64,000 nucleotides of DNA from Candidatus Heimdallarchaeota archaeon (GTDB taxonomy: Archaea; Asgardarchaeota; Heimdallarchaeia; Heimdallarchaeales; Kariarchaeaceae): NCBI GenBank assembly GCA_027077875.1, contig JALWRB010000216.1:941-64940 (forward strand), read 5' to 3'. This document shows positions 1-40,122 of the stretch, piece after piece (position 1 is the first letter of the stretch; every line of letters starts with the position of its first letter). The notes below the pieces were generated by a model. It saw only the letters and a program-made list of their open reading frames with translations. It did no database searches and was not told where the DNA came from. Position numbers and translations under genes: made by a program.

Positions 1-861
1 ACGTCCTGAACCCCCATTACCCGCGGAGGTGATCAGGAGCATACCAGCTTCCTCGATTCTTTGGAAGATATTGGCGAATGGTGCATAATACCCACCACCA
101 CCGGAGTAATTAATGATCTTCATCGTCTGGTTCTTGGAGATCATGTAGTCGAAAGCCTCAAAATAGTGGATATTATCTGCTCCTGTCTCAAAGCTCCTTC
201 CGTTGTCTTGCATCCTCCATGCCGCAGATATCACTGTCGCATTGAAGGCGTTGCCCTTAGCCAGTGGATCGTCGTCACCAGTCCCGACGATCGTCCCAGA
301 CACAGGTGTTCCGTGGAAGGGATCCCTCGTACCGAGACCGCTGGTCTCGAACCATGTCTGCTCGATGATCCTGCCCTTTAGACCCGGGTGATCTACCTCG
401 ACACCGTTGTCCACGACTCCTACGGTGACGTTCTGCCCCGAGTATCCTAGGTCCCAGAGTTTGTCCACACCCATAAACGGTGCGTCCTCTAATGAGTCAA
501 GGGTCATCCTTGCCTCAACAACTGGAGGGACTTCGAGGTCGAGCTTGTGGACGGATGTGTCATAAGCTGGCCCCACCTCTGTCCTGATCTTCTCGATAGC
601 TCCAATGGTGGTCTCAATCAGAGCGGCTCTTAGGTTGGGGAAGGCCTTGATGACATCACTTGTCTCCAAGAGATACTCATAATCCTCTTTTGTATCCGGG
701 AAGACTATGAATCTCCTAGTAATTTCCGAGTTGAACTGGAAGTAATTCGGTGATGAATTTGCGATATATTCTTCATTCTCCACTGCCTGAATGTCTTGCG
801 GTACAACCGAAGCTATTAGGAGTGTAGCGATGAACAGAAGTGGTATCCTGTTCTTGTACAT
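1..861 (-). CDS. S8 subtilisin-like serine protease, paralog copy 1. Partial: the 3' end runs off the window start.
   Basis: Minus-strand ATG at 861..859 gives MYKNRIPLLFIATLL, a signal-peptide-like N-terminus. The translated sequence parallels ORF 983..3988 (Asp-box VVDNGVEVDHPG, HGTPVSG). Absent from the ORF track because no stop codon lies inside the window. Nucleotides about 300-520 are nearly identical to about 3400-3640. Confidence 0.75.
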   Translation of the reverse strand, partial: MYKNRIPLLFIATLLIASVVPQDIQAVENEEYIANSSPNYFQFNSEITRRFIVFPDTKEDYEYLLETSDVIKAFPNLRAALIETTIGAIEKIRTEVGPAYDTSVHKLDLEVPPVVEARMTLDSLEDAPFMGVDKLWDLGYSGQNVTVGVVDNGVEVDHPGLKGRIIEQTWFETSGLGTRDPFHGTPVSGTIVGTGDDDPLAKGNAFNATVISAAWRMQDNGRSFETGADNIHYFEAFDYMISKNQTMKIINYSGGGGYYAPFANIFQRIEEAGMLLITSAGNGGSGR

Positions 862-982: not shown

Positions 983-3900
983 CTACTCTTTTCTTCGTGT
1001 AGATCTTTTGACTACCGGAATCGAGAGTAGAGCGACCGTGACGAGTAGGAATACTGGGTAGAAGCTAGTATCCTCTGTTGTGGCATCGGAGAGAGTCGTC
1101 TCGCTGGTCGTCGTATTTGTCGAAGTGGTGGTTGGGATCTCCTCGCCTTCGGCCAGCCTGTAGATCACGAGGTTGTTCACTGAGACATGGTCCTTGGAGT
1201 CTGTCGCTCGTACGGTGAGTGTATGTTCTCCAGTGCTTATCTCCGAGAGGGGTATCCTCACCTTCAGCAGATTGTTAGTGTAGAACTGCTTGAAGAGAAC
1301 CGGATCAACGGATGCACCGTCGAAGAGGACTTCAATCTGGTCGAACTTAATCTCCTCAGAGGCATCTACAATCGTATACTTCACGAACCCGTAGAGCTCG
1401 TCGTAGGTGAAGTACGTATTGTTTTCTATGTCAGGTGTGATATCTGGACCATAGTTGTCGACGATTCTGTCCCATCTGAGGTACTCGTCACCGTTGCTAA
1501 CCTCTAGGGTGTGAGGACCATCGACGTCGTATTCCTCTACGATCTGGTAGTCCCCATTCATGAGTTTCTTGACCTCCTTGCTCTCGGTCTCCATGAACTC
1601 ATTCCCGATCCTCCTTGCAGTGGGTTGGGTCCTCGATCTCACCGTCACCGTTAGCTCTGTTGTGGTCTCTTCCTCTGCGATGAGGTACATCCGATTCTCA
1701 GAGGTCAGCCACTTGGCAATGTTCTGGGCTAGAACCTTGGAGGTCGCAGTGTCTCCCATGATGGCCTTGTTACTCAGGATATTGCCAGACGAGGTGACGA
1801 CTACCCTGCCTCCGTCTATCTGATCGTAGGAAGCGAGGAATGTCCTTGTGCTGTCTCCAACCAGTGGACTGAGGATTGCGTTATCTGCTGCTGCCTTAGC
1901 GATATCGAGTGAGAGGAAGTTTCCTGAGATGGATGCTGTCGTTGCCCCTCCGACGATGGAGGAAATGTTATTTAGATCCCATCCATTACCTGAGATGTCC
2001 GATGAACTTAGGTTATCATACGGCGTTATGCCCCAACCTGAAGTCAGTGGTGTTATCGCACTCGGGTCTCCACCCACAGTCACCTCACCATCATCAAACA
2101 TCCCCTGATAACTAATTAACACGGAACCCCCCCCGTCTACGAACCCCCTAATCGCAGTGATCTCTGAAGGAAGCAGGGGTTGTCCTTGGTAATCATAAAT
2201 CCCGAGGAGCTCTGGCATCCAAAGGACATCGTAGCTATCAAGTAAAGCAGAGGTAATCTCTTGGTTCTCCCGAATGACTTGAATACCCATGTCAACAAAG
2301 GTTCTTCTCATGAATTCAGTCTGGTAAGCGGTCAATGCGGTGGATGCGAATCTCTCCCCATCGGTGTGCCTTTCGTCAAATAGAACTTTTCCGATAGGTG
2401 CTTCAAGGACAGTGATGGTGAGATTGACAGTCCTCTCGATTCCATCTAGGGAGACGACAATCGAGCCTGAATATGCTCCAGGAGTAATCCCGGTTGTGTC
2501 GATATCCAGTGGTAGGTACTGAGAGTAGGAGTTATTATCCCATCTGTTCATATCGAGGCTCAGGACCTGTGAGAGATCGCCTGTCATTCTGATATTGAGT
2601 TCAGAGGCATTTGATGTGATAACTGTAAACCCATCGACACCCTCCGTGACACTTGGGAAGTACCGCAGGTCGAATAGTCCTCCATGATTCGGAGTCACAA
2701 TTAACCCCTCTGCGAATCCTCCAGTTGGGTTCTCATCCTTAATCGAGGTGTACGAGTTGTAGATGTTCACATCGCCTGCACCCTTGAGGTAGTCCATCTT
2801 ACCATAGTCCATATAGGCTCCCTGTAGAAGAGCGGCCTTGAGTGTCCCCACATTCCACGTATAGTTCTCAGCGTTGAGGGCAGAGATCAATGTGGCCACT
2901 GCACCCGCAGTCAAGGGAGATGAGAATGATGTGCCTGAGACTCTACCATAACCCTTTCCTAGAGTAGTGGAATAGACTGAAGACCCCGGTGCTGCAACAT
3001 CGGGTTTCATCCCAGGAAGAGCTCCCGGTCCTCTAGAGGAGAAGGAGGTCAGGGACGATCTCTGATCTCGGTTGGTGGCTGCGACGGACACCGGTTCGAT
3101 GAAGCAGGACGGGCATCCTACTGTCTCCATTCCAGATCCTTCATTTCCCGCTGATGCGATTAACAGCATACCCGCCTCCTCGATTCTCTGTTGGACAATG
3201 GCAAAAGGCGCAAAGTACCCACCCCCTCCTGAGAAATTAATAATCTTCATCGTCTGGTTTTTGGAGATCATGTAGTCGAAGGCATCGAAGTAGAAGATGT
3301 CATCTGGTCCAGTTTCGAAGCTCCTACCGTTGCTCCTCATCCTCCACGCTGCGGATATCACAGTCGCATTGAAAGCGTTACCCTTTGCCAATGGATCGTC
3401 GTCACCTGTTCCGACGATCGTACCTGACACAGGTGTTCCGTGGAAGGGATCCCTCGTACCGAGACCGCTGGACTCAAACCATGTCTGCTCGATGATCCTG
3501 CCCTTCAGACCCGGGTGATCTACCTCGACACCGTTGTCCACGACTCCTACGGTGACGTTCTGCCCCGAGTATCCTAGGTCCCAGAGTTTGTCCACTCCCA
3601 TAAACGGTGCATCCTCTAACGAGTCAAGAGTCATCCTTGTCCCGACCACAGGTGGAATCTGTAAATTCGCTCTGTTCACTGTAGTATCGAATGCGGGACC
3701 GATTTCCGATTGGATTCTTTCAATCTCGCCCAACTTGCTTTCAATCAAGACTGCACGAAGGTTAGGAAATGCCTTGATGACATTCGATGATTCGATAAGG
3801 TTCACATAGTTCTCCTTAGTGTCTGGGAAGACGATGAATCTCCTAGTGATTTCCGAGTTGAACTGGTAGTAATTCGGTGATATATCTATTGCGGATTCTT

Positions 3901-3988
3901 CGTTCTTTGATGCTTGTATCCCCTGTGGTAAGACAGAGACAATCAGTAAAGCCAAGAAGAATATGAAAAATCCCCTGTTTCTGTGCAT
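983..3988 (-). CDS. S8 family subtilisin-like serine protease. Secreted, with a C-terminal Thr-rich linker, TM anchor and basic tail.
   Basis: Catalytic motifs VVDNGVEVDHPG (Asp), HGTPVSG (His) and GTSFSSP (Ser). N-terminal signal peptide. The C-terminus TTTSTNTTTSETT...FLLVTVALLSIPVVKRSTRRKE is typical of archaeal surface-anchored proteins. Confidence 0.85.
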   Translation of the reverse strand: MHRNRGFFIFFLALLIVSVLPQGIQASKNEESAIDISPNYYQFNSEITRRFIVFPDTKENYVNLIESSNVIKAFPNLRAVLIESKLGEIERIQSEIGPAFDTTVNRANLQIPPVVGTRMTLDSLEDAPFMGVDKLWDLGYSGQNVTVGVVDNGVEVDHPGLKGRIIEQTWFESSGLGTRDPFHGTPVSGTIVGTGDDDPLAKGNAFNATVISAAWRMRSNGRSFETGPDDIFYFDAFDYMISKNQTMKIINFSGGGGYFAPFAIVQQRIEEAGMLLIASAGNEGSGMETVGCPSCFIEPVSVAATNRDQRSSLTSFSSRGPGALPGMKPDVAAPGSSVYSTTLGKGYGRVSGTSFSSPLTAGAVATLISALNAENYTWNVGTLKAALLQGAYMDYGKMDYLKGAGDVNIYNSYTSIKDENPTGGFAEGLIVTPNHGGLFDLRYFPSVTEGVDGFTVITSNASELNIRMTGDLSQVLSLDMNRWDNNSYSQYLPLDIDTTGITPGAYSGSIVVSLDGIERTVNLTITVLEAPIGKVLFDERHTDGERFASTALTAYQTEFMRRTFVDMGIQVIRENQEITSALLDSYDVLWMPELLGIYDYQGQPLLPSEITAIRGFVDGGGSVLISYQGMFDDGEVTVGGDPSAITPLTSGWGITPYDNLSSSDISGNGWDLNNISSIVGGATTASISGNFLSLDIAKAAADNAILSPLVGDSTRTFLASYDQIDGGRVVVTSSGNILSNKAIMGDTATSKVLAQNIAKWLTSENRMYLIAEEETTTELTVTVRSRTQPTARRIGNEFMETESKEVKKLMNGDYQIVEEYDVDGPHTLEVSNGDEYLRWDRIVDNYGPDITPDIENNTYFTYDELYGFVKYTIVDASEEIKFDQIEVLFDGASVDPVLFKQFYTNNLLKVRIPLSEISTGEHTLTVRATDSKDHVSVNNLVIYRLAEGEEIPTTTSTNTTTSETTLSDATTEDTSFYPVFLLVTVALLSIPVVKRSTRRKE

Positions 3989-4158: not shown

Positions 4159-4166
4159 TTTATATA
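4159..4166 (+). promoter_or_regulatory. Candidate archaeal TATA box (TTTATATA), about 28 bp upstream of the GTPase ATG. Fits a leaderless transcript.
   Basis: TTTATATA sits at -32..-25 relative to the ATG at 4191, in the divergent intergenic region between the subtilase and GTPase genes. Confidence 0.3.
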
Positions 4167-4190: not shown

Positions 4191-4766
4191 ATGGACTTCA
4201 TGGCAAAGTTACTTCTTATCGGTGATGGAGCAGTAGGGAAGACCAGTCTCAGGAAAAGATATCTTGGACATGGATTCAATGCATCCCATCTTATGACCAT
4301 AGGTGCAGACTTTGCCTCCAAGACGATTGTCTTGGACTCTGGGATAAAATTTGTAGCTCAGATTTGGGACCTCGCAGGACAGGAACAATTTGCGAGTGTT
4401 CGCCAAAGATTCTTTCTTGGCGCTTCTGCTGTCATGCTCGTCTTTGATGTGACAAACCGGGACACATTCTTCAACATTCCCAACTGGTTGCAGGAACTCT
4501 TCTCCGCGACTAACAACGCCAAGATCCCTATTATTCTTGTTGGTAACAAGGTTGATCTGGAGGACCACAGGGTGGTAAGAAAAGAGGATGCAGAGAAATA
4601 CCTTCAGCTACTGCGATCGAGCCCATTCTTCTCAGATATCCCGATGGCATACATCGAGACATCAGCCAAGGACGGTACAAACGTGGAGGATGCTTTTCAC
4701 TGGCTGGCCAAGACCCTTGTTGAGAGCGATGTCATCCACAAACCAAGAGCTTTTGGTTCGAAGTGA
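4191..4766 (+). CDS. Small GTPase of the Ras superfamily, Rab/Ras-like.
   Basis: G1 GDGAVGKT; switch I TIGADF; G3 WDLAGQE; G4 GNKVD; G5 ETSAK. Length 191 aa. No C-terminal prenylation Cys. Confidence 0.85.
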   Translation: MDFMAKLLLIGDGAVGKTSLRKRYLGHGFNASHLMTIGADFASKTIVLDSGIKFVAQIWDLAGQEQFASVRQRFFLGASAVMLVFDVTNRDTFFNIPNWLQELFSATNNAKIPIILVGNKVDLEDHRVVRKEDAEKYLQLLRSSPFFSDIPMAYIETSAKDGTNVEDAFHWLAKTLVESDVIHKPRAFGSK

Positions 4767-5153: not shown

Positions 5154-6422
5154 ATGCGAATAAAATCAAAAGACATGCCCCTGATCCTCGCGCTCCTTGA
5201 GAATCCCACTGCTACACAGCAGGAACTCAAGGATGCCATCAAGGAATTTGCAGATCATACATGGGACGTCTCCAATATCTCTAGAAAACTAACCAAATTT
5301 TTCGATCCCGAAGATGGAATCATGAACGGTGTCCAAGCTACTTTTAACCTTAGTTTACTGAACCTCGAACTTCACGGATTCGTGGTGGAATTGGAGGACG
5401 ATGCCTGGAACAGAAATTATGATATTATTCATCAACTTGTAATTCTTCATCCGTACGCCTCCTACATGAACAAGATCTATGGACACAAAAATGGGGTCTA
5501 CTTACAGTTCTACGTTCCTAAGAAGAGCGATGTCGGGTTGTATATTGCCCGGCTCCTTGACTATCTCATCACGGCCAAAGTCGTCAAGGAGTACGACTGG
5601 ATAAAAGATCTTGACTTTGTGATCAGCTCGAGTGGCTCACTTGGTGTGTGGGATCCTTGGACTAGCTATTGGGATGTTGACTTTGACAAGTTGGAACATG
5701 TACTGAATACCGTGTATGAACCGATTTTCATTCCTAAACGAAGAAGTGTACTGCATAAGCTCAAAGACTATGACATGGCAGTTATTCGTGAGTTGTCGAA
5801 GAATCTAAGGCGAAGCCAGATTGAGATCATGGAATCACTGTTCGGGGACCTGAAGGGTGAGGAAGGCTATGATCCATACCGTAATGTCAGAGACAAATTC
5901 CCGAAATCCAAGCAGTCTCTCTCTCGGAAGATCCAATGGATCGAGGATTTCGGATTCATAAAGAGCAAATGGCTGATGTTTGACAGGGAGAAATTCGGTC
6001 TTCTCAACCAGATACTTTTTGTCATGGATCGTGATGAGATAGGGCTTGCTGCTCTGGTCAAGTCCATAGAGCTTGAGGTCGAGGCAAAGGGTATGACAAC
6101 CAAGGGTGAATACACGAAGAAGAACAAAATCCTACCATATCCCTGCAATGTCTCTGTGAACTCCGACAAAATTGTTCTGTGGCTATACCTCCAACCACTG
6201 GATCTCTTAAAGTTCAGTGATCTCTTTACCAGTAGGTTCCAAGGTGTGGAGATTTATATCCTTGGTGTTGATCCAAAAGCATACTATTTCAACAATGTAA
6301 ATTTTGATTCTGATACCAGACAATGGAAAACTCAACCCGTCTACGTCTATGATGAGATCCTTTATCAGCTAAAAGAAATTCTGGAAATGGGTGCGATACG
6401 AATATCGGATCCATTGGTGTAA
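5154..6422 (+). CDS. Putative transcription regulator with two tandem Lrp/AsnC-like modules, each an HTH plus an effector-like domain.
   Basis: N-terminal LLENPTATQQELKDAI, then an ISRKLTKF HTH-like pattern. A second similar module starts at about residue 205 (VIRELSKNLRRSQIEIMESL ... SLSRKIQWIEDFGFI). Confidence 0.4.
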   Translation: MRIKSKDMPLILALLENPTATQQELKDAIKEFADHTWDVSNISRKLTKFFDPEDGIMNGVQATFNLSLLNLELHGFVVELEDDAWNRNYDIIHQLVILHPYASYMNKIYGHKNGVYLQFYVPKKSDVGLYIARLLDYLITAKVVKEYDWIKDLDFVISSSGSLGVWDPWTSYWDVDFDKLEHVLNTVYEPIFIPKRRSVLHKLKDYDMAVIRELSKNLRRSQIEIMESLFGDLKGEEGYDPYRNVRDKFPKSKQSLSRKIQWIEDFGFIKSKWLMFDREKFGLLNQILFVMDRDEIGLAALVKSIELEVEAKGMTTKGEYTKKNKILPYPCNVSVNSDKIVLWLYLQPLDLLKFSDLFTSRFQGVEIYILGVDPKAYYFNNVNFDSDTRQWKTQPVYVYDEILYQLKEILEMGAIRISDPLV

Positions 6423-6489
6423 AAATATGTGTGTGTAATGATTCTTCGTACTGGCTGTCTGAAATTTCATTATTATTCACCTTATACCT

Positions 6490-7014
6490 TTGACATTGTT
6501 AACCAATGAAGTTATAAATTACATAATGATAAGTCAATATGAGGTCTCCATGAAAAGAATGAGAGTAGTATTCATCCTTACGGTATTCGTACTCGGAATG
6601 ATGTCATCTATCAGCACAGCATCCGCGAACTTCTCGGTGTATGTATCTTTCAACGATGCATATTATGCTGATCTTGATGGTGATACACTCCAAGATGATA
6701 TCAGGTTGGATATGACAATTGAAATCTACAACTACCAATACTCGACAGATGTTGAGTTATATGTCGGCATCACCCTTCCATCAGGAACACAATACTGGTT
6801 CTTGGTTACTTTTACCGTCTATAAGTCAACCTACGGATACAGCACTGGTATGCTGTTCAATGCTTACGACACTGCGACCGAGTCAGGATGGTATGACGCT
6901 TCGGCGGTAGGGTTTGCTAACGGAGAGTCCTACTCAATAATGGAAACAATTACCTTCGATCCTCCCGGTGGTAGTGGTCCCGGAAATCCACAGGCAGAAG
7001 CGATATTCTATTAA
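6490..7014 (+). CDS. Secreted hypothetical protein.
   Basis: Signal peptide (MKRMRVVFILTVFVLGMMSSISTASA). No recognisable domain. Confidence 0.4.
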   Translation: MTLLTNEVINYIMISQYEVSMKRMRVVFILTVFVLGMMSSISTASANFSVYVSFNDAYYADLDGDTLQDDIRLDMTIEIYNYQYSTDVELYVGITLPSGTQYWFLVTFTVYKSTYGYSTGMLFNAYDTATESGWYDASAVGFANGESYSIMETITFDPPGGSGPGNPQAEAIFY

Positions 7015-7049: not shown

Positions 7050-8372
7050 ATGGCAGACCACGTGATCTCAATAGAGGAACTGTTCAACAAAGTCCCTGAG
7101 ATGAGAAAAGTGGATCTGACTCTCTGCGTTAATTGTAAATCGGTGAAGTTAGCTTGCGGATTGCTGAGGTGCCCACTTCTAAAGCTCTATGAATTTCCTC
7201 AGACTTCTGAGAGCCTCCAGAAGCTTGACTCATCAAATACATTATTCGGACCATCACCACAGATCTTCGTGGGTGAAAGTGGTTATCCACGGGTGACTGC
7301 TGGTCCGTTGACATCCCTCTCACCGGACAGTGAACTATCCAGACTTGCGGGCAATCCCTCGAAGTGGACTTCTCTGACGCTCGACCAGATCATGGAGCTG
7401 AGATTCGGTCTGCTTAGAGGTATGCAGAAAGCACACGCACTTTCCCCGGCATTCAGGGACAGACCACAGCAATCCAGACTCGTAGATAGCTTGCAGGAAA
7501 TTGCAATGGCAACGAACTCGGTCGAGACGGAAACACAGTATACTGGAAGGATAGATCCAACGATCAAGTTAGACTCCGTACTCTCACCCATTGGGCCCAC
7601 AGGTGCCATCCGGAAGCTGGATGTGACTGGACATTCTCGAATACCAAACAAGGTCGAGCAGTTGATAGGAGACGAACTCAAGGCAACAGAGCAGGTGAGT
7701 CAGATAGCTTCACTGGGTTTCGACGTATACTATCTCCAAAATGTCTTCTCCTCTGGTCTCACAGGTATCAAATCCTCTAGGAAAATGGTTCCTACGAGGT
7801 GGTCAATCACTGCAGTAGATGATATCGTCGGGAATAATCTTATCCAAGGTCTACAGGACTTCAAGGAGATAGAGGACATAACAGTCTACCATGGTGGTTT
7901 CTACGGTAACTACTTCACCTTTCTCCTTCTTCCCGAAAGATGGGGGTTCGAGAACTTCGAGAACTGGATGAAAGGATCGATATATTCTCTTGCCAGTAAG
8001 GGCTACCTTATCTCCCAAGATCATGAAGATCTGAAATACTCTTCTGTATATAGGGGGAAGTCTAAGTACTCCAATCAAGCTGGTGGCTACTACGCAGCGA
8101 GAATCAGCTTGCTCTATCATTTACACAAGCTCAGACGACAAGCAAAGGTGATTTCATTCAGGGAAATAACTCCCGAGTACCTAGTTCCATCTGGAGTCTG
8201 GGTTGTTCGGGAGGCTTCCCGAGTAGCGTTAACTGCTCAACCTCGGACTTTCCAGACCAGAGAAGAAGCTGAGAACTATGTCGATTCGGTCCTACTCACC
8301 CCTCTACAGGAATACAAAAATCGATCTTTCCTCCTTGTCCAAAGGTCACTTGATGAGTTTTTTTCTGACTGA
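7050..8372 (+). CDS. Hypothetical protein, possibly an archaeal NreA-like DNA repair protein (DUF650/DUF651).
   Basis: 440-aa ORF with an N-terminal Cys motif, LCVNCKSVKLACGLLRCP. This resembles my memory of the Nre N-terminus. The family call is uncertain. Confidence 0.4.
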   Translation: MADHVISIEELFNKVPEMRKVDLTLCVNCKSVKLACGLLRCPLLKLYEFPQTSESLQKLDSSNTLFGPSPQIFVGESGYPRVTAGPLTSLSPDSELSRLAGNPSKWTSLTLDQIMELRFGLLRGMQKAHALSPAFRDRPQQSRLVDSLQEIAMATNSVETETQYTGRIDPTIKLDSVLSPIGPTGAIRKLDVTGHSRIPNKVEQLIGDELKATEQVSQIASLGFDVYYLQNVFSSGLTGIKSSRKMVPTRWSITAVDDIVGNNLIQGLQDFKEIEDITVYHGGFYGNYFTFLLLPERWGFENFENWMKGSIYSLASKGYLISQDHEDLKYSSVYRGKSKYSNQAGGYYAARISLLYHLHKLRRQAKVISFREITPEYLVPSGVWVVREASRVALTAQPRTFQTREEAENYVDSVLLTPLQEYKNRSFLLVQRSLDEFFSD

Positions 8373-9572
8373 AAAAACCATGAATTTGGCAATCCTTGAG
8401 AATTCTAGGTAAAGATCACGTGGATTGTTCTTGATTAGTCTTTCATCCGATAGTGTGGGTTCTTCGATTGCCTCTATACTAAATCCAGCATTAACGCAAT
8501 ATTTAGTATACTGTGAAATGGTTCTGTGGAAGTATTGCAGCTTTTTTCCGTTGTACTCATAAATACTCGGTTGGGAATTGTAGTAGTTGTCTACCATGTA
8601 CACTCTGTCCTCATTCCTCTCCGAGTCCCATGGAAATTTCACTGGATTGAGAACAGGAATGTTGAAGCAAGGATGTGTTATCGAGAAGACGAGTATCCCC
8701 TCTGGTTTTAACACCCGGTGAATTTCTGCCATAATGGGTTCAATTAGGGGAATATCCATAAATGCCATGTTGCAGACAGCCTTATCGAAGGTATTTTCTA
8801 GGAATGAATCCAAGGAATCAGACTTTAGGTATTCTATTCCGAAATTGTCTTCCTTTTCTAACTCTATCGCATAATCGATCATCTTTGATGGATCGATTCC
8901 TGTCACCAATACTCCTTGTTTTGCAAGGATTCTGGCGATATTTCCCTCTCCGCAAGCAAAGTCCAGAACCTTTTCCCCATTATTGACACCGAGTAGCTTT
9001 AGAACCTCGGGAATAATTATGTATCTGTGGTTAAGATCTGGTTGATTAAGTCTATCCTCAACCCAAGTGGGTGCTATTTTATCCCATACATCAACTGAGT
9101 CCAAAGCAGTATCCAACCTCAATGGTAGAGAGCCCTTGGGTATTAGCTCTGCACTCCTTGGGAAAGGATTTCCAGTCGGAACTGATCCTGTTGGTATCCA
9201 CAAGACGAACTCGGTGGACGGTCTGAACTCACCAAATTGGATTGGGTGTTGAAGAGCAATTTCCGCGAAATCTAAAGCGGGAAGGTGCTTTCCACATCCT
9301 GAGCAGGGGATTGAGTAATAGTATTCATAGATGAGGAATCTCTCCTGAATCATTAGTTCATCGGCACAACCGACACAAGTATACCGATTACAGTCTTGGC
9401 ACCATCCAACACCAGAGAAATGCTTTTTGATCCCACATGAGTCACACTTGAACTGAAAGTGGAGCTCGCATCTGGGCGTAATTGGGTCGGTAAATTTTGT
9501 ACCAGGGTTAAGTGGATAGTCTGGGATAATCTTCTGATATTGACTACAATAATAGCACAGCTGCTGTATCAC
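8346..9572 (-). CDS. Class I SAM-dependent methyltransferase with an N-terminal Cys-rich zinc-ribbon region.
   Basis: Motif I VLDFACGEGNIA. Multiple CxxC pairs at the N-terminus. Confidence 0.6.
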   Translation of the reverse strand: MIQQLCYYCSQYQKIIPDYPLNPGTKFTDPITPRCELHFQFKCDSCGIKKHFSGVGWCQDCNRYTCVGCADELMIQERFLIYEYYYSIPCSGCGKHLPALDFAEIALQHPIQFGEFRPSTEFVLWIPTGSVPTGNPFPRSAELIPKGSLPLRLDTALDSVDVWDKIAPTWVEDRLNQPDLNHRYIIIPEVLKLLGVNNGEKVLDFACGEGNIARILAKQGVLVTGIDPSKMIDYAIELEKEDNFGIEYLKSDSLDSFLENTFDKAVCNMAFMDIPLIEPIMAEIHRVLKPEGILVFSITHPCFNIPVLNPVKFPWDSERNEDRVYMVDNYYNSQPSIYEYNGKKLQYFHRTISQYTKYCVNAGFSIEAIEEPTLSDERLIKNNPRDLYLEFSRIAKFMVFSVRKKLIK

Positions 9573-9607
9573 ATTGGAAATCTAATAAGAGTGTTCTAAA
9601 GCTTTTC

Positions 9608-11122
9608 TTAATTGAATTCGGGAATGTCTTCAGAGGTAAATTCCTCTGTGATCTCTTTATCAGGGAAGGACCATGTACCGTCTCCGTTGGCCCTAGCTCC
9701 TTTCTGATAGTCTTCATGAGGTGTCTCTACGAATGAAAGGAGGATGAAACCTATTACCATTAAGACCATCAGAACGATAATCGCATACCGCGTAGCCCTG
9801 CTTGCAGTGAACCCAAAAAAGATCAGGATATCAATGGAGATTGACCAGACGAATGGACCAATCGCAGCGGATATCCTTCCGAATATGTTGGTGAATCCAA
9901 AATAATTTCCTATCTTCTCTGGTGGGGCCAGTTCATTAATGAATTGGCGTTGGACAACCCAGCTACCTCCAAGTGCGGGTCCCACAAATAGTGGGAAAAC
10001 GAAGACAAGAATGGCAGGTGTACGGATATCACCAATGGTCAGATTTGTGAGAACACCGAGTGTGAGGGCCACCATCCACAGGGAGAAGACAAGAACTAAC
10101 CCTTTTTTCGGACCATGTTTGTCGACAAAGACTCCCACGGGATAGGTGAAGACCACAGCTGAACCAATACCGATAGCGAGTACTATGAGCACAGTGCTCC
10201 CCTCACCGAATTCCAGTCCCACGATGACCATGACGGACATAAAGGCAATCACGGTATTTGCTGCGTCGACAAAAATCAACCAACCAATGAGGAAGAAGAG
10301 CATCTGTCTGTAATTCCAAATCTCCCTCCCAGTCTCCATGACATTGAGGGATACCTGACCCAGAAGCTCATTGGGAGGTACTGGTTCAATCTCGTTGGGT
10401 CTCTCCTTAACAAAGATCATGGGGAGAGCAAAGAGCAAGAACATTGCTGCTGAGACTGGAAATATGTACGGGAGGTAGCCGAAGACAAATAGGTCTGGTT
10501 GACCTTTGACCGGATCTGCTGCTTGAGCGAAGAAGTCCCCGAAAATAGGCTCCAGTGCGAACCCAAGTCCAATTCCTATGAATGATCCGAAGTATCCGAG
10601 CGCCACTCCGAACCCACTCACTTTTCCGATGTTTTCCTTGGTTGTGATGAATGGTAGCATACTGTCATAGACCACCAACCCCATTTGGTAGAAGAGGTTT
10701 GAAAACAGGAATATTGCGAGGACTAGAAAGATGTTTGTCGTGAACGCAGAGGCTATGAGTGAAGCCATAAACGTAATACAGAGCATCGTCAACCACATGA
10801 GCAATGACTTTCGTGATCTCTGCTGATCTGCAAATGCCCCGAGGAAGGGAGAGATCAGTGCCATGATGATGTTCCCTATAAGTAGGGTAGTAGAGATGGC
10901 ATAGTTTCCCTGTCTGATTGCCTCACTCCCTACTCCGAGTTTTTCATAATACATAATGTAGATCAGTGGACCGAGGCTCAAGGAGACAACAACCATCGAG
11001 AAGATGGTGTTTCCAAGATCGTAGAGCGCCCAGTTCAGGACATTCCAGTTAAGCGCCTTGATGCTAGGGAGTTCGATGTCATCCACCATGTCTGGTGCAG
11101 GGTAGGTTTCTTCCATAAACAC
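9608..11122 (-). CDS. MFS transporter, Atg22-like/UMF1 family.
   Basis: About 12 predicted TM helices. N-terminal WALYDLGNTIFS resembles the Atg22-family WxxYDxANSxF motif. Confidence 0.55.
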   Translation of the reverse strand: MFMEETYPAPDMVDDIELPSIKALNWNVLNWALYDLGNTIFSMVVVSLSLGPLIYIMYYEKLGVGSEAIRQGNYAISTTLLIGNIIMALISPFLGAFADQQRSRKSLLMWLTMLCITFMASLIASAFTTNIFLVLAIFLFSNLFYQMGLVVYDSMLPFITTKENIGKVSGFGVALGYFGSFIGIGLGFALEPIFGDFFAQAADPVKGQPDLFVFGYLPYIFPVSAAMFLLFALPMIFVKERPNEIEPVPPNELLGQVSLNVMETGREIWNYRQMLFFLIGWLIFVDAANTVIAFMSVMVIVGLEFGEGSTVLIVLAIGIGSAVVFTYPVGVFVDKHGPKKGLVLVFSLWMVALTLGVLTNLTIGDIRTPAILVFVFPLFVGPALGGSWVVQRQFINELAPPEKIGNYFGFTNIFGRISAAIGPFVWSISIDILIFFGFTASRATRYAIIVLMVLMVIGFILLSFVETPHEDYQKGARANGDGTWSFPDKEITEEFTSEDIPEFN

Positions 11123-11222: not shown

Positions 11223-12686
11223 TCATTCATCTCTATGACTGTAAAATCTTCTCCGGACTCCAAGAAGGATAATAGGTAGGGCCACCATGGCGATTGAGGA
11301 AAAATCTAGTAGATTCTCCTCCGATGAACTTGGAGTGGCCTGTGATGTGGAGCTGATCGATGATGTAGGGGTAGTTGTTGACGTAGAGGTAGTCGATAAG
11401 GCGGTGCTTTCCACCAGCTTACCGAAATAGACATCCATCTCACCGTCCCTTCCGTCGCTCCAGACTATGTGGGGGACATCATCACTATCAAGCTTTAATG
11501 TGAGATAGTCTCCAGGACGGGTGAACTCCGAAGAGGTTGGTGTCTGCGACACGATGATCTCATCTCCAAAAGTCATGGATGTGGTATTCAGTACCCTGTA
11601 CTTAACCGAATACGTGTCTACACTACTCTGGTCATAGTAGGCCAAGTGCACGTTGCCAACAGAGTCAATTTCTATATCAGGCATCCACTGCTTGTCTTCC
11701 GTGAACTTGTTCACCATTATCCTGCTACTCCACGTATCCCCATAATCATCAGAATAGGAGAGCCAGACGTTGAAATCGTAGCCACCGTAGGTCGTGTTAG
11801 CAGAAGTATCCTCCCACGCTAACCATATCCTACCGGTACTGTCCTGCTCCATTGCTGCAAGGGAGACAACTGCTGGTCGACCACTACTACCTCTGGTGAA
11901 CCAAGACCCATTAGACGCACTGTTGATATCAACCGGGTCTTTCCATGTCTTCCCGTTGTCCTCCGATCGGGTGAAGAAGATCTCAGACTTCTCAGGGGTG
12001 TCCCCAAGATAGGTGACCGCCAAGTATAGGTTATCATTTGACCTGTCAGGGAGAATGTATGGTCCCACGTAAGAGCCATTCAGAACGAGTGTGGTGTCAT
12101 TGAACGAATCTCCTCCATCCACAGAGGTAGACAACTTGACAAGAACATTAGACACAATGTCATCATATGCCAGATAGATAGTACCGTCGGAGTCTATTGC
12201 AAAAGTCTCCTTGTCCGCGAACCCACTGGCATTAGTAGCGGATACTAAGTTCCAGCTACTCCCATAGGTATTGGAAGTCGCCATGGTCATTTGGGAGTAC
12301 TCGTAACCCGCTTCGAGATAGAGGAAGTAGAGTGTGTTATTGAAGTAGTGCATCCACGGATCTGACTGAATACTCAGATCTGAGGTGTTGAAATATGGCA
12401 TCTCCACCGGAGGGAAGAATGTTTCCCCATCATCATCCGAGAAGACATAGGATACTCTCTCACCACCTCCATCGAATGTGTAAGCATTCTTGAACCCAAT
12501 GAAGACCTCACCTTGATCTCCAAGCGTCATGGTAGGCTCGACCTGATGCAAGTAGTTCATCTCGTCTGTTGAGACAAGGACGTTGGTGAAGACCAGAATT
12601 GGATCGGGATTCTCTTCACCAATTGTCTGACTTGGGATAAGTGTCCCCATGAGAATTAGAATTCCTAAGAAGGCAGCAAATCGCAT
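11223..12686 (-). CDS. Secreted BNR/Asp-box repeat protein (sialidase/glycosidase-like beta-propeller) with a C-terminal Ser/Thr-rich linker and TM anchor.
   Basis: Asp-box motifs SDDDGETF, SVDGGDSF, SEDNGKTW and SDDYGDTW. Signal peptide. C-terminus STTSTSTTTPTSS...MVALPIILLGVRRRF. Confidence 0.7.
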   Translation of the reverse strand: MRFAAFLGILILMGTLIPSQTIGEENPDPILVFTNVLVSTDEMNYLHQVEPTMTLGDQGEVFIGFKNAYTFDGGGERVSYVFSDDDGETFFPPVEMPYFNTSDLSIQSDPWMHYFNNTLYFLYLEAGYEYSQMTMATSNTYGSSWNLVSATNASGFADKETFAIDSDGTIYLAYDDIVSNVLVKLSTSVDGGDSFNDTTLVLNGSYVGPYILPDRSNDNLYLAVTYLGDTPEKSEIFFTRSEDNGKTWKDPVDINSASNGSWFTRGSSGRPAVVSLAAMEQDSTGRIWLAWEDTSANTTYGGYDFNVWLSYSDDYGDTWSSRIMVNKFTEDKQWMPDIEIDSVGNVHLAYYDQSSVDTYSVKYRVLNTTSMTFGDEIIVSQTPTSSEFTRPGDYLTLKLDSDDVPHIVWSDGRDGEMDVYFGKLVESTALSTTSTSTTTPTSSISSTSQATPSSSEENLLDFSSIAMVALPIILLGVRRRFYSHRDE

Positions 12687-22392: not shown

Positions 22393-23850
22393 TCATAGGA
22401 TTATAATATTTAGTATCTCAAGTATTTGGAAAACTAAGAGGACCGTGTTCATCACCATCCCAAAGTTCCAGAACATCCGAAAATCCGGAATGAATGGTAT
22501 TCGCGGGTCTTGGTTAATTCTATTCAGTAGAAGGAGGAGAAGAAGAGATGTGGTCGACATACCGAGGTAGAGTACAAGCCATTGTTGAACCCTTGGACCG
22601 AACGAGTAGAAGAGTACATTGAGTATGAGAATGAGAATGGCGAGAGAAATAACGAGGTATTTCTTCTGAGTCCTCGCTGATCTCATCGCAGTCATCCTGT
22701 TTGTGAGTGCGATCAAACCGCTTGATCGTTTTTGATTCAGTCGCCAGGAGAAGACCGCCATCTTCGGGTCTAACCCCTGCATCATACAGACCTTCCTTAG
22801 GACATCTCTCGTCTTGGCATTCTTGTAGGTAACGTATGTCTCAACAGCCTGAGCCAGAGTGAGTTCGGGAGAGTCACCAGTCACCAATTCCTTTATTTCC
22901 GCATCTCTGGACTTCTCGTCTTTGGATTTTTCAATATCTTGTGCCAGAACCTCGTAGCGGTCCTTAGAAACTCTATTTATCCTATTTGACTTTGTAACAA
23001 TTTCCTCCCCAAAACCCATATCATCCGAGAGATCGGACAGAAACACTATAGGGTTCATAATTTTCTTCGATGATGAAATCACCTGTCTTAGGCTCTTCCT
23101 CGGTTCTTGAGTATCTGCAAAATAGGTGGAGAGTGACTTCACGCTCTTTATCTCGTTCGATGATAATCTCTGGATTACCCTAACGCTACCGTCTTGGGTG
23201 AGTGAGACATAGAAGTCATCATTGTCGTCATAGTAGTAACTGTCAATGAGGTAGCTTATCTGTGAGAAATCGTGAAGTGACTTGTGGGACTTCTTCTTGA
23301 GGTTGATACTGGTGACAGTTCCGTCTTGGGAGGATACGACGACCTCTTCTTCATTGAGAATAGAGAGCTTACATGTGTGCATTGGGGGATCAAGTTGATA
23401 GTCACCTACGTTAAACTCGATACCCAGTTTCCAGACTGATACAAGACCAGATTTTGTGAGGTAGGCCAACCTTTGGTATTCGTAAGATACTGTTCCAGCC
23501 ATGACCTCTTCGTCGATTGGTATTGAGCTCTCGATGTCGAACCCAATGAGATTAACTTTGTACACTCCATTGTGCATAAACAGGTAGATGAGGTTGTTAT
23601 TCCCGTCCACGAAAAGATCCCTGACGGGAGCGACAATTAACACACGATCTCCAAATGGAGTCTCCTCAAAATTCTGAATCTCGTGGACAATCTCTCTGTA
23701 TTTGAGGTTGTAAAGAATCAATTTCCCAGTGTCTGTGCCAATTACGAGAAGTGGCTCTGACGGATGTAGACGGATTGCAGTAAAGAACTCATCGCCCCTC
23801 GGTTCGACTATCCACTCCTCGGTTTTCACATCTAACAAAATTTCTAACAT
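22393..23850 (-). CDS. Hypothetical protein with an N-terminal WD40-like beta-propeller and C-terminal transmembrane helices.
   Basis: The N-terminal 200 aa carry repeated beta-strand blades (LVIGTDTGKLILYNL, LVSVWKL, GTVTSINL). The C-terminal 90 aa are strongly hydrophobic. Confidence 0.45.
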   Translation of the reverse strand: MLEILLDVKTEEWIVEPRGDEFFTAIRLHPSEPLLVIGTDTGKLILYNLKYREIVHEIQNFEETPFGDRVLIVAPVRDLFVDGNNNLIYLFMHNGVYKVNLIGFDIESSIPIDEEVMAGTVSYEYQRLAYLTKSGLVSVWKLGIEFNVGDYQLDPPMHTCKLSILNEEEVVVSSQDGTVTSINLKKKSHKSLHDFSQISYLIDSYYYDDNDDFYVSLTQDGSVRVIQRLSSNEIKSVKSLSTYFADTQEPRKSLRQVISSSKKIMNPIVFLSDLSDDMGFGEEIVTKSNRINRVSKDRYEVLAQDIEKSKDEKSRDAEIKELVTGDSPELTLAQAVETYVTYKNAKTRDVLRKVCMMQGLDPKMAVFSWRLNQKRSSGLIALTNRMTAMRSARTQKKYLVISLAILILILNVLFYSFGPRVQQWLVLYLGMSTTSLLLLLLLNRINQDPRIPFIPDFRMFWNFGMVMNTVLLVFQILEILNIIIL

Positions 23851-29282: not shown

Positions 29283-30074
29283 CTATTCCTCTCCGAGTCT
29301 CTTCTTGAGGTTATCAATAATCTCGTCTGATCTCATCATCTTCTCCATGAAGGAAGTGGAGATCTCTTCCTGTATTCTCTCGTTCTCTTCCCTTTCCTCC
29401 TTGAGACGCTTCTCAAGATCCTCGACCTTCTTCCTTAGCCTCTCGGTCTCTTCTGAGTCTCCGACATTTCCAACGACCTTCTTTACGATCTCGTCAATTG
29501 TTATCCCAGGTGGAAGCTTCTCTTCCACGAGGAGTTCAAGGGTCTTCTTCTCTTGGTTAAACACACTCTGCATATGTGTCCTCTCATCTTTGAGACGCTC
29601 CTCAAGATCTCTCCTAATGACACCCTCTGATGCCAATTGCTTCTTGACCTCTCTGAGCTGATCAGTAAGTTCTTGGACGTTCTCTTGCTCAATGGTGAGT
29701 GATCTACGTGCATTCTTGGCTGAATTCTCGAGCTTGTCCATTGCTTCATTATACTTCTCGATGAGAAGAGCATAGGAGTTGATGAAGTCCCTGACCATTG
29801 GGTGTATTAGATCAAAGTACTCTTCTATGTCCTCCTCTAGCTGCTTGTGCTCCGAGCTGACGAGTTTCTCCTTGTAGACTGGCTTTACGAGGTATTCAAT
29901 GTCATTGTAAGGATTGTCGTAATCTTTGATATGATCAAAAAGGGTTTTCTTCTTCTTTCCAAACATGTCTATGAGAGAATTGGCCCACAAGTGAAATAAA
30001 CATTTCCCCTCGAAAACTCCCGATTTGGAACCACGTGAAGAGAGACCTCTCCTTTGAGCAACCTTAATAATCAC
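29283..30074 (-). CDS. Coiled-coil hypothetical protein.
   Basis: Long heptad-like E/K/R/L-rich sequence. The true start is probably the internal Met (MFGKKKK, near 29966), which leaves room for divergent promoters. Confidence 0.45.
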   Translation of the reverse strand: MIIKVAQRRGLSSRGSKSGVFEGKCLFHLWANSLIDMFGKKKKTLFDHIKDYDNPYNDIEYLVKPVYKEKLVSSEHKQLEEDIEEYFDLIHPMVRDFINSYALLIEKYNEAMDKLENSAKNARRSLTIEQENVQELTDQLREVKKQLASEGVIRRDLEERLKDERTHMQSVFNQEKKTLELLVEEKLPPGITIDEIVKKVVGNVGDSEETERLRKKVEDLEKRLKEEREENERIQEEISTSFMEKMMRSDEIIDNLKKRLGEE

Positions 30075-30075
30075 C

Positions 30076-30783
30076 GTGCTCCATTATAGTATTAGTAGAA
30101 TGTCCGAGAGCGACAAAAAACCTCCAAAAGGCCTAATCCCCCGGGAGAAGAAATCATCGTATATCCATATCCGAGTGGATCCTGACTTCAAGGACCAGGT
30201 GACCAAGAAGGCCATGGAGGAGGAGATGAATCTGACCAACTTTGTTGTTCTCGCTCTTGAAGAAGCGATCTACGAGAAGGACGTTGAAGAAGAAGAGAAG
30301 GAAGAGGAGGAGGAGGAAGAGGAAGATTTCCTTTTAGAAGAGATACTCACCGCTATGGAGAACCTCGAGCGGAGGATGGAGATTCGATTGGCTACTCTTC
30401 AAGACGCGTTCAACTCGCTAATTGGAAAACTCCTTGACTTCGAGAGGTCTGGTGCCTCCCTCGCTAGAGGTAGAAAGAAGGGCAAAGCGAAGGACAGCGA
30501 CGACGAGGAGAGCTTCGACTTCGAACTGGATAATGTCTTGCAAACAGAGCCAGAGAAACTTATCTACCAGAGAGTTAAGCGGTACATTGAGAGCAAGGGA
30601 AGTGTTGGGCGGCTACCTCCATTCAGCGAGATTGTTGCGCACCTTGAAACGGACAAGAAACTCAAAGAGTACCTCATCGCTCAGGACAAGAACTTTCCAG
30701 GTTGGAAAGATACACTCATCAGGGACGCTATCGACGAGGCAATTGACGAGCTGGGCATCCCAGTGTACGGAGGAATTGACTGA
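30076..30783 (+). CDS. Ribbon-helix-helix (CopG/Arc-like) domain protein with a poly-Glu acidic tract.
   Basis: SYIHIRVDPDFKDQVTKKAMEEEMNLTNFVVLALEEAI fits the RHH beta-alpha-alpha pattern. The stop overlaps the start of the downstream integrase-like gene (TGATG). Confidence 0.55.
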   Translation: MLHYSISRMSESDKKPPKGLIPREKKSSYIHIRVDPDFKDQVTKKAMEEEMNLTNFVVLALEEAIYEKDVEEEEKEEEEEEEEDFLLEEILTAMENLERRMEIRLATLQDAFNSLIGKLLDFERSGASLARGRKKGKAKDSDDEESFDFELDNVLQTEPEKLIYQRVKRYIESKGSVGRLPPFSEIVAHLETDKKLKEYLIAQDKNFPGWKDTLIRDAIDEAIDELGIPVYGGID

Positions 30784-33101: not shown

Positions 33102-34220
33102 GTGTCGTCATTATACGAAGAATGGCAGAAAAATGATCCTTCAAATTCATTGAGCCAGAACGAAGCGCGAGTTTTACACAGTTTAATCAAATGGCCTGAC
33201 CTTACAGATCAGGCGGTCCATTCCCAGATTGGAATGAAGAAATCAACCTTTAGTAGCATAAAGACTAGGCTTAAGGAGAATGGGTACTATACCAGATACT
33301 ACGTACCGAATTTCCCCAAGATTGGACTGGAACTCCTCGTTGCAATGCACGGTCACCTCAATAGGTTCACCACTCTGGAGGAGAGAATGAGGGTGGCAAA
33401 GGATCTTCTCGAAAGCTTTGTCGAGGATTTCCACATAGCCTCAGAGTCCAACAAGGCTTTCAATCTCTCTGCATCAGCTAATCTTACGGAGTACTCTAAG
33501 AACCAAGAAAAATTCGTCCAATTATATAGCGAGAATAAATTCCTCGACAAGAACGGAATGTCCGTGGTCTACTTCCCGTTCGAGATCAGTAGAGTACGAG
33601 CATTCATGGACTATGAGTCCTTAGTTGCAAAAATATTTGGATTCGCCTCAGACCCCTACGAGAAGAGGCAGACAATACCCTCTGGAAAGGTCACAAAGGC
33701 CAAACTGACCAAGGCAGAGAAGAAAGTACTAGCAGGTCTTGTTCAGTTCCCCGAGGAATCAGACACCTTGATTGCTGATAAGGTGGGTGTGTCTAGGAAC
33801 ACGGTTGCCAACGCCAAGAAGAAGTTCCTTGAGCAGAACATCTGCTTCCCGAGGGCGGTTCCTGATCTGCAGAAGCTTGGTTTAAAGATCCTCGTCTTCT
33901 CCTATCGGAAGTTCAATCCTATGACGACCATGGCTCAGAGAGTGGAAGCATCAGAGATGGTACGGCAACTTCTGGCGCCCTTCATGTACATATCCAAGAA
34001 CCTCGATGGAATAGTGATCTCTGCTCATAGGTCATTTGAGGAGTACAATGCAGCACACGACGAAATTATGAGGTTCTACCTCAAGCACGACTACATCATT
34101 GACGAGCCAATCAGTTACCAGATGAGCATGTCAAACATTAATTATATCAAGGAATTTGATTTCCTCCCATTGACGCTCAAGACCCTCGGTTTTGACATGA
34201 TGAAGGATGGTCGTGAGTAA
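33102..34220 (+). CDS. Putative transcription regulator with two tandem winged-HTH (Lrp/AsnC-like) modules.
   Basis: EARVLHSLIKWPDLTDQAVHSQIGMKKSTFSSIKTRLKENGY and KAEKKVLAGLVQFPEESDTLIADKVGVSRNTVANAKKKFLEQNI. Same architecture as ORF 5154..6422. Confidence 0.45.
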   Translation: MSSLYEEWQKNDPSNSLSQNEARVLHSLIKWPDLTDQAVHSQIGMKKSTFSSIKTRLKENGYYTRYYVPNFPKIGLELLVAMHGHLNRFTTLEERMRVAKDLLESFVEDFHIASESNKAFNLSASANLTEYSKNQEKFVQLYSENKFLDKNGMSVVYFPFEISRVRAFMDYESLVAKIFGFASDPYEKRQTIPSGKVTKAKLTKAEKKVLAGLVQFPEESDTLIADKVGVSRNTVANAKKKFLEQNICFPRAVPDLQKLGLKILVFSYRKFNPMTTMAQRVEASEMVRQLLAPFMYISKNLDGIVISAHRSFEEYNAAHDEIMRFYLKHDYIIDEPISYQMSMSNINYIKEFDFLPLTLKTLGFDMMKDGRE

Positions 34221-39732: not shown

Positions 39733-40122
39733 CTAGCTGTATTTCTTTAAAGTGCTTTCTATAATCTCTCTAATTTCTCCGTTGTAGTGTGAGTGTACCA
39801 GCTCCTCGAAGAGTTGCCTGATCTCTGGATGGGATTGGAAATCTCTCCTCGCCAGCACTTCAAGAGCGTTCTTCCTTACGAGATCACTGGTATCATGCTT
39901 CACAACATCTATCAATGGTAGGATCATCTGGTCGTCTTGAATCCATGAGAGTGACTGTATCGCGGCTACCCTGACCAGCCTACTGGGATCCTTGAGGGTT
40001 CGTATCAATGGAGGTACACACTTTGGGGTTCTAATCCTCCCCATTCTCATCGCTGCATTTCGACGCTGGTTCTCAGTACCCTCGTCAATTTGCCTGATTA
40101 ATGTGTCAATCTCACTACTCAC
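39733..40122 (-). CDS. HEAT-repeat (PBS lyase HEAT-like) protein.
   Basis: Repeated units of the form V..LI..L.D....VR..A...L. Confidence 0.6.
   Translation of the reverse strand: MSSEIDTLIRQIDEGTENQRRNAAMRMGRIRTPKCVPPLIRTLKDPSRLVRVAAIQSLSWIQDDQMILPLIDVVKHDTSDLVRKNALEVLARRDFQSHPEIRQLFEELVHSHYNGEIREIIESTLKKYS

Follow-up and report, generated by a model that had tools for sequence, protein, structure and literature searches.

Small GTPases with the full set of Ras-superfamily motifs are encoded in some archaeal genomes, and the locus considered here raises the question of which family one such protein belongs to, whether it can be called a Rab in the strict sense and to which cellular process it might be connected. 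The gene in question lies near one end of the window, the whole 64,000-nucleotide (64-kb) stretch of DNA that was analyzed, and is described as follows.

4191..4766, plus strand: stand-alone gene for a Ras-superfamily GTPase of the Rab-like/Asgard RasL type (191 amino acids [aa], ATG start)

As detailed below, the product of this gene is very probably a soluble, single-domain Asgard Ras-like (Rab-like) GTPase, encoded by a Heimdallarchaeial genome near the Kariarchaeaceae and likely to operate as a binary switch.

Conserved motifs and predicted fold of the GTPase

All five G boxes that define Ras-superfamily GTPases, including the TIGADF and WDLAGQE motifs named in the original prediction, were located by a regular-expression scan and occur in canonical order: G1 (GDGAVGKT, residues 11 to 18), switch I (TIGADF, residues 36 to 41, within which Thr36 is located), G3 (DLAGQ, residues 60 to 64, inside WDLAGQE at residues 59 to 65 and containing the catalytic Gln64), G4 (NKVD, residues 119 to 122), and G5 (SAK, residues 158 to 160). 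They conform to the superfamily patterns GxxxxGK[ST] (G1), Thr (G2), DxxG(Q) (G3), [NT]KxD (G4), and SA[KL] (G5). The profile search that had been suggested as a check returned the Pfam Ras family (PF00071) with an E value of 5.1e-47 and 159.9 bits (cutoff, 21.6), the match spanning profile positions 1 to 160 of 162, and the NCBIfam family TIGR00231 (small_GTP) was matched with an E value of 4e-24 and 85.2 bits (cutoff, 42.5). The combination of five motifs and a profile match in this open reading frame (ORF) is confirmed to be far beyond chance, and the gene is an intact member of the Ras family. Secondary Pfam matches to Arf (60 bits, versus 160 for Ras), Gtr1_RagA (33 bits), and Roc (also weak and overlapping) are those expected of any Ras-superfamily protein.

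The gene is under purifying selection: a dN/dS of 0.11 was obtained when two close orthologues were compared with each other, and the same orthologues, when compared with the window gene, gave a pN of 0.14 and a pS of 0.86, the latter reflecting saturation of synonymous sites. A 79%-identical orthologue in a related locus (L092, positions 6305 to 6883) carries the P-loop GDGAVCKT, in which the invariant Gly of GxxxxGK is occupied by Cys; the substitution may be an error introduced during sequencing or assembly or, alternatively, a naturally occurring variant, in which case nucleotide binding would likely be impaired.

An AlphaFold2 (AF2) model, built from a 40-sequence family alignment, displays the canonical G-domain topology (pLDDT, 89.3; pTM, 0.85), being poorly defined only at switch I residues 29 to 32 and in the last nine residues. 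The model comprises a single G domain of approximately 20 kDa, with a sheet of six strands (residues 2 to 11, 39 to 47, 53 to 61, 80 to 86, 114 to 119, and 152 to 156) and five helices (residues 17 to 25, 65 to 75, 96 to 106, 131 to 143, and 165 to 178). The G domain ends at approximately residue 178, and the C-terminal tail (residues 183 to 191) is disordered in the model. At the N terminus (MDFMAKLLLIGDG), the P-loop is preceded by just 10 residues, while the C terminus reads VIHKPRAFGSK and the protein as a whole contains no cysteine. Helix α4 and strand β6 are separated by an insert of approximately nine residues (LQLLRSSPFFSDIPMA, at about residues 144 to 152), which is modeled with high confidence and is absent from the Thorarchaeota Rab (Thor-Rab) and from eukaryotic Rabs. 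In the family alignment, the window lineage and a few of its top-scoring relatives (P0003 to P0007, P0010, and P0012) have two signatures in common, namely, a conserved Pro within the α4-β6 insert and the switch II/α2 motif RQRF[FL]LG.

Host genome and distribution of homologues

The window derives from a Heimdallarchaeial genome related to the Kariarchaeaceae, as indicated by its sequence relationships. It harbors archaeal genes for Nre, LonB, Orc1/Cdc6, a homologue of Rpo5, and MutS/MutL, and the nearest named relatives of its LonB are those of Kariarchaeaceae and Heimdall LC_2 (65 to 69% identity), a further LonB with 74% identity being encoded by a metagenome-assembled genome (MAG) labeled “Methanobacteriota archaeon.” The closest named homologues of the GTPase are found in Heimdallarchaeota, Kariarchaeaceae, and Hodarchaeales, with a few in Thor and Hermod lineages, and thousands of homologues are present in the database. 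The LonB taxa and these homologues bear out the earlier assignment of the DNA to an archaeal, Asgard-type genome. Many Ras-like paralogues occur in Heimdall genomes, often several within a 20-kb locus. An exact-peptide scan of GTDB with the single GTPase protein gave no match, a profile-based scan did give matches, and the window species is absent from the GTDB representatives.

Copies of the GTPase that are 99 to 100% identical were identified on NCBI/ENA contigs (GCA_037928875.1 and hydrothermal-vent metagenomes) with the same gene order, those carrying the identical gene including contig JAGSHL010000037.1 of GCA_037928875.1 and an ENA scaffold of 178 kb, and orthologues with 79% identity are encoded on syntenic JGI contigs; all other relatives are at most 56% identical. 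These data bear on the possibility that the gene is a eukaryotic contaminant of the assembly or a recent acquisition from a eukaryote, for which an identity of approximately 40% to eukaryotic Rabs might be cited. Against this stand the recovery of the identical gene, in an unchanged archaeal gene order, from four contigs that are independent of one another and originate from different samples, the synteny shared by the 79% orthologues, and the position of the uninterrupted gene between archaeal genes on both flanks. The closest relatives beyond these orthologues (49 to 56% identity) are also located on Asgard contigs and are nearer than any eukaryotic match. Synteny and homologue distribution thus refute a eukaryotic origin by contamination or recent transfer, to which we assign a next to negligible probability.

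Two related loci (L015 and L016, approximately positions 8296 to 10925) harbor a paralogous Rab-like gene whose product is 52 to 53% identical to the window GTPase. Upstream of this paralogue lies a gene for a protein of Thioredoxin-V4R-V4R architecture, and a 127-aa ORF begins 8 bp downstream of it; the latter was considered as a Roadblock candidate in L016 and rejected, being a coiled-coil protein with no Roadblock match. V4R is a prokaryotic relative of the Bet3 fold of TRAPP, and the V4R protein and the Rab-like gene of these loci could represent a GTPase/TRAPP-like pairing.

Several further features of the contig were recorded. A 471-aa ORF (positions 40298 to 41713, plus strand) contains an Rpb5/RpoH domain at its C-terminal residues 387 to 452, preceded by PD-(D/E)XK-like stretches (NA-iREase1 and Mrr_cat). 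Archaeal RpoH structures (78 to 84 aa) align only to residues 386 to 458 of this ORF, while eukaryotic RPB5 (210 aa) aligns through its residues 61 to 200 to ORF residues 317 to 450, an alignment which extends into the eukaryote-specific N-terminal domain; the ORF may represent a “long” Rpo5 of the eukaryote-like type, encoded by a Heimdall genome. Positions 30783 to 32654 encode a tyrosine recombinase of 623 aa (Phage_integrase, PF00589), which is preceded by two ORFs without a Pfam match and followed by a TrmB-like helix-turn-helix (HTH) protein, and the region from 29283 to 32654 may be an integrated mobile element. A 485-aa protein (positions 22393 to 23850, minus strand), which has matches to WD40 beta-propellers only and these far below the Pfam cutoffs, and a 129-aa protein with HEAT repeats (positions 39733 to 40122, minus strand) are further “eukaryote-flavored” repeat proteins on the contig. 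Searches for tRNAs and Rfam families yielded none in the window.

A Rab-like protein rather than a Rab in the strict sense

The best PDB sequence match to the GTPase is Thor-Rab (7EZB; E = 6.6e-40), and the 59 matches that rank behind it are without exception eukaryotic Rabs (Rab11, Rab8, Ypt1/Rab1, Rab2, Rab7, Rab10, and others). The same picture emerged from the AF2 model, whose top 50 Foldseek matches in the PDB are exclusively Rabs, with target-normalized TM scores of 0.72 to 0.91. When scored against individual reference proteins, the GTPase gave 138 bits with Thor-Rab, 116 with Rab1A, 114 with Rab7A, 110 with Rab11A, 103 with Ran, and 101 with Rab5A, whereas HRas (67 bits), RhoA (58), Rac1 (53), and Arf1 (22) scored far lower. 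The eukaryotic reference sequences used for these scores and for the trees below were entered by hand after the UniProt entries, and the independent PDB sequence and Foldseek searches agree with them. The original description of the protein as Rab/Ras-like is, in this respect, correct, the matches to 7EZB and to Rabs making it Rab-like; its lack of cysteine and of a supported sister relationship to Rabs argues against a true Rab, as set out below.

A true Rab orthologue would be directly related to the eukaryotic Rab ancestor and would act on membranes in vesicle-like trafficking. In addition to the top sequence and structure matches, the well-matched RabF1 (IGADF) and RabF5 (LVFDVT) motifs are in keeping with such an identity, as is the switch I sequence TIGADF, which we take to be identical to that of Rab7. 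The RabF1 to RabF5 consensus motifs, reportedly defined by Pereira-Leal and Seabra in 2000, are IGVDF, KLQIW, RFRSIT, YYRGA, and LVYDIT. Read from alignments against this consensus, the GTPase matches 4 of 5 positions of RabF1 (IGADF), 3 of 5 of RabF2 (AQIW), 2 of 6 of RabF3 (QFASVR), 2 of 5 of RabF4 (FFLGA), and 4 of 6 of RabF5 (LVFDVT), with conservative changes in addition in the last two. RabF2 to RabF4 are thus only partially preserved, the Arg of YYRGA being replaced by Leu.

A further departure from Rabs is found at the C terminus, where no geranylgeranylation motif (CC, CXC, CCXX, or CAAX) is present. The protein contains no cysteine anywhere, and prenylation (a geranylgeranyl anchor) is therefore impossible; a C-terminal Cys is likewise absent from all 40 aligned relatives. 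Asgard archaea are not known to provide a context of Rab escort protein or Rab geranylgeranyltransferase. Compared with eukaryotic Rabs, to which it is 36 to 41% identical and with which it shares the fold (target-normalized TM scores of 0.83 to 0.91 among the closest matches), the Rab-type switch I TIGADF, and the good RabF1 and RabF5 matches, the GTPase lacks the hypervariable C-terminal tail and the CC/CXC/CAAX cysteines, retains RabF2 to RabF4 only in part, and possesses the additional α4-β6 insert.

Thor-Rab presents a comparable situation. It is approximately 43% identical to the window GTPase, with an identical P-loop (GDGAVGKT) and G3 region (IWDLAGQ), and each of the two proteins consists of a G domain that stands alone, has a short C terminus, and lacks a prenylation cysteine. 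The two differ in the α4-β6 insert of approximately nine residues, which Thor-Rab lacks, in the RabF4 region (FYRGA in Thor-Rab versus FFLGA), and at the position of the MglA-like arginine (Arg37 in Thor-Rab versus Met35), and their hosts belong to different Asgard classes. The structure of Thor-Rab (7EZB/7EZD/7EZE) was solved by Tran et al. (2024), who reported GDP and GTP binding and a slow intrinsic GTPase activity (PMC10933270). Thor-Rab is likewise without a lipid anchor, as it has no prenylation cysteines, and neither for Rab escort protein nor for Rab geranylgeranyltransferase was a homologue found (PMC10933270).

Ran scores as high against the GTPase as does Rab5 (103 versus 101 bits). 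In a neighbor-joining (NJ) tree with 100 bootstraps, the phylogeny that had been suggested alongside the original prediction, members of the window lineage cluster tightly in a clade of their own (100% bootstrap), and their identity to anything else is only approximately 50 to 56%. The backbone of the tree, which would place this clade within the Asgard Ras-like radiation and relative to Rab and Ran, has a bootstrap support of 3 to 34%, and the tree gives no supported sister relationship to the eukaryotic Rabs. In a maximum-likelihood analysis of 996 sequences, no Asgard sequence was specifically sister to the eukaryotic Rabs (10.1101/2024.02.28.582541), and Vargova et al. assigned proteins of this type to the Asgard “RasL” group, which lies inside the Rab/Ras/Rho/Ran clade (10.1101/2024.02.28.582541). 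Considering these data together, a true Rab orthologue is highly unlikely. The protein fits the Asgard Ras-like (RasL) group: it is Asgard encoded, single domain, and nearer to Rab/Ras/Rho/Ran than to Arf, Rag, or MglA, and members of this group, of which many paralogues are present per Heimdall genome and often several per 20-kb locus, are distinct from MglA, ArfL/ArfR, and RagGtr. Asgard RasL small GTPases are said to have been delimited by Klinger et al. in 2016.

Comparison with MglA-, Arf-, and Rag-type GTPases

MglA-, Rag-, and Arf-like GTPases are also encoded by Asgard genomes (PMC10933270), and the Pfam Arf and Gtr1_RagA profiles do match the protein secondarily and more weakly, which makes it necessary to weigh a function as an MglA-type polarity or motility GTPase with a Roadblock (MglB) GTPase-activating protein (GAP) or as a Rag- or Arf-type GTPase. 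MglA/MglB resembles the present system in being a prokaryotic Ras-superfamily switch. MglA has a Thr at the position of the G3 Asp, an arginine finger in switch I, and a Roadblock partner gene, whereas the GTPase retains the G3 Asp (Asp60 in DLAGQ), has Met35 at the arginine-finger position (aligned to Thor-Rab Arg37 and MglA Arg53), and has no Roadblock or longin gene adjoining it or elsewhere in the 64 kb. Similarity to MglA is also much lower, with no MglA structure among the top 60 PDB sequence matches or the top 50 fold matches. It had been anticipated that best matches to MglA or to a translation factor would overturn the assignment; the best matches are instead 7EZB and then Rabs.

Arf and ArfR proteins are characterized by an N-terminal amphipathic helix, the P-loop GLDxAGKT, and the interswitch motif WDVGGQ, none of which is found in the GTPase (P-loop GDGAVGKT and G3 WDLAGQ), and Arf1 matches it with just 22 bits. 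A Roadblock domain fused to the C terminus of the G domain, as in Rag/Gtr proteins, is likewise absent, the protein being a bare G domain of 191 aa in total. Together with the Pfam scores (Ras, 160 bits; Arf, 60; Gtr1_RagA, 33), these motifs and the protein length refute an MglA, Arf, or Rag identity at the level of sequence and fold, and we regard it as extremely improbable.

Proposed action as a GTP-dependent switch

The Rab-like protein contains the full catalytic set (Lys17/Thr18, Thr36, Asp60, Gly63, Gln64, and NKVD/SAK), from which we infer a GTP-on/GDP-off switch; judged by this motif conservation, nucleotide cycling is most likely. The P-loop GDGAVGKT and the NKVD and SAK motifs would bind the guanine nucleotide, Thr36 of switch I and Gly63 of switch II are predicted to sense the gamma-phosphate, and Gln64 would position the attacking water. 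Intrinsic hydrolysis is presumed to be slow by analogy with Thor-Rab and, since Met35 provides no intrinsic arginine finger, the same analogy implies that the switch would require a GAP and a guanine nucleotide exchange factor (GEF) that are products of other genes and act in trans. No GAP or GEF candidates are encoded in the 64 kb. As stated in the original prediction, no Roadblock or longin partner lies beside the gene, and a search of the window's 49 main ORFs detected neither of these nor a second Ras-like gene. Because the protein possesses neither a cysteine nor an N-terminal amphipathic helix, Rab- or Arf-style membrane anchoring is not available to it, and any recruitment to membranes or targets would proceed through protein partners.

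Sequences flanking the GTPase gene

Two features flank the coding sequence.

4159..4166, plus strand: TATA-like element TTTATATA, centered approximately 28 nucleotides upstream of the GTPase ATG

5154..6422, plus strand: 422-aa gene downstream of the GTPase gene, syntenic only in the window's own lineage (L001 to L005)

The spacing of TTTATATA relative to the start codon would fit an archaeal promoter that gives rise to a leaderless or near-leaderless mRNA. An A/T-rich element (CTTAAATA) is present at a similar distance upstream in the 79%-identical orthologous loci; in the upstream alignment with these orthologues, little is conserved beyond the start-codon context and the A/T-rich element at approximately position −28, and no regulatory motif was evident. 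The 422-aa gene was considered as a partner or regulator of the GTPase and rejected: its product has no Pfam match even at an E value of ≤0.1, residues 207 to 286 display only a subthreshold resemblance to the CodY winged-helix domain (E = 0.11), and it is not paralogous to the TrmB-like ORF at position 33102.

Recurrent proximity to membrane-anchored subtilases

On the other side, the GTPase gene is divergent from secreted protease genes, as had been noted previously.

983..3988, minus strand: 1001-aa subtilase gene, divergent from the GTPase gene and 203 bp away (Peptidase_S8 domain at residues 141 to 404)

1..861, minus strand: second S8 protease gene, arranged in tandem with the 1001-aa subtilase gene and truncated by the window edge so that only its C-terminal part is included

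The complete S8 tandem pair (1003 and 1001 aa) is seen in locus L001. The 1001-aa subtilase carries a signal peptide at its N terminus, while its C-terminal portion comprises a Ser/Thr-rich stalk followed by a transmembrane (TM) helix and a basic tail; it is a possible functional partner of the GTPase. A BNR-repeat protein encoded elsewhere in the window (positions 11223 to 12686, minus strand) ends in the same manner, with one TM helix and a basic tail after a Ser/Thr-rich stalk, which suggests a common scheme of surface anchoring, and probably also of glycosylation, for the S8 and BNR-repeat proteins.

This arrangement would be of interest if the GTPase and the adjoining membrane-anchored subtilase formed a functional module, in which a cytosolic GTP switch would be coupled to the way a giant surface protease is produced, exported, anchored, or turned over. 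In approximately 2 Mb of Asgard loci centered on Rab-like genes, 103 Rab-like lineages (90% clusters) were evaluable. Of the 8 lineages of the clade with the shared signatures (RQRF[FL]LG and the insert Pro), whose members are the top matches by score, 7 have an S8 gene no more than 500 bp away, versus 0 of the 95 others. A scripted tally gave 6 of 7 versus 1 of 96 (Fisher P = 3e-8, a statistic which ignores phylogeny), the single “other” lineage, L013, being a member of the cassette clade described below that falls outside the signature regular expression. The closest relatives of the GTPase outside the window lineage (P0004, P0006, P0007/P0010, and P0012; 49 to 56% identity) are each followed on the same strand, 55 to 340 bp downstream, by a gene for an S8 protease of approximately 1400 aa. 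These genes form part of a recurrent cassette in related Heimdall loci (L008, L010 to L013, L017, and L171), in the order Rab-like gene, S8 gene (approximately 1400 aa), small HTH or unknown ORF, MptE-like gene (PF01973), and second Rab-like gene; the Rab-like and S8 genes are separated by 55 to 80 bp in four lineages and by 340 bp in L017, and the flanks of the cassette vary. All of these S8 proteins share one topology, in which a signal peptide and an S/T-rich stalk are combined with a TM helix at the C terminus and a basic tail in the cytosol.

A number of observations weigh against a functional coupling. The window GTPase and S8 genes are divergent and are therefore not cotranscribed. The catalytic domains of the window S8 protein (1001 aa) and of those of the cassettes (approximately 1400 aa) are only 31% identical, and the architectures of the two types are not alike. 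When the comparison was reversed, starting from the 23 proteins of the window-type S8 family, the expected association failed to appear: homologues with 35 to 43% identity have no Ras-like neighbor (loci L173 to L175, of which L174 and L175 were evaluable). One member of the signature clade, L006, has no S8 gene nearby. The two S8-linked Rab clades are not recovered as sisters by bootstrapped NJ; although the window lineage and the S8-cassette Rabs grouped in a first NJ tree, the bootstrap support for this grouping was just ≤33%, and shared signatures and top similarity, rather than orthology, are therefore claimed for them. The carriers are, moreover, related organisms, since one MAG label is shared by a cassette GTPase and a LonB that is approximately 74% identical to that of the window, and the GTPase-S8 pattern may reflect one or two historical events followed by inherited synteny. 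Finally, the protease is extracellular, with only an 8- to 12-residue tail facing the cytosol. On balance, a functional module of the window GTPase and its subtilase neighbor is put forward tentatively, as a doubtful reading with some chance of being correct. The broader proposal, that a Heimdallarchaeial Rab-like clade including the window GTPase constitutes a conserved module with giant membrane-anchored subtilases, acting as the switch that controls their deployment and, in one branch, also comprising an MptE/Maf-like enzyme, a small regulator, and a second Rab-like GTPase, appears somewhat less likely again.

Implications for Asgard Rab-like GTPases

Ras-superfamily GTPases of Asgard archaea are among the leading “eukaryotic signature proteins” in the case for an archaeal ancestor of eukaryotes that was already equipped with parts of a membrane-trafficking toolkit. 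The window GTPase provides one more well-preserved Heimdall example, which alone changes nothing; such genes are already known and numerous in Heimdall genomes, and apart from its link to S8 genes the present gene is ordinary. It also restates a known caveat, in that a Rab-like G domain is present without the lipid anchor to which Rabs owe their role as membrane identity tags. To our knowledge, almost nothing has been reported on what Asgard Rab-like proteins regulate, and the clade-specific, repeated adjacency to genes for surface proteases provides a concrete hypothesis regarding the cellular process involved, representing the only nonroutine lead from this locus. If the GTPase and its adjoining subtilase do form a module, prokaryotes would have a counterpart of secretion under GTPase control, and, if the association holds for the wider clade, it would constitute a pre-eukaryotic link between Rab-like GTPases and a secretory or cell-surface pathway.
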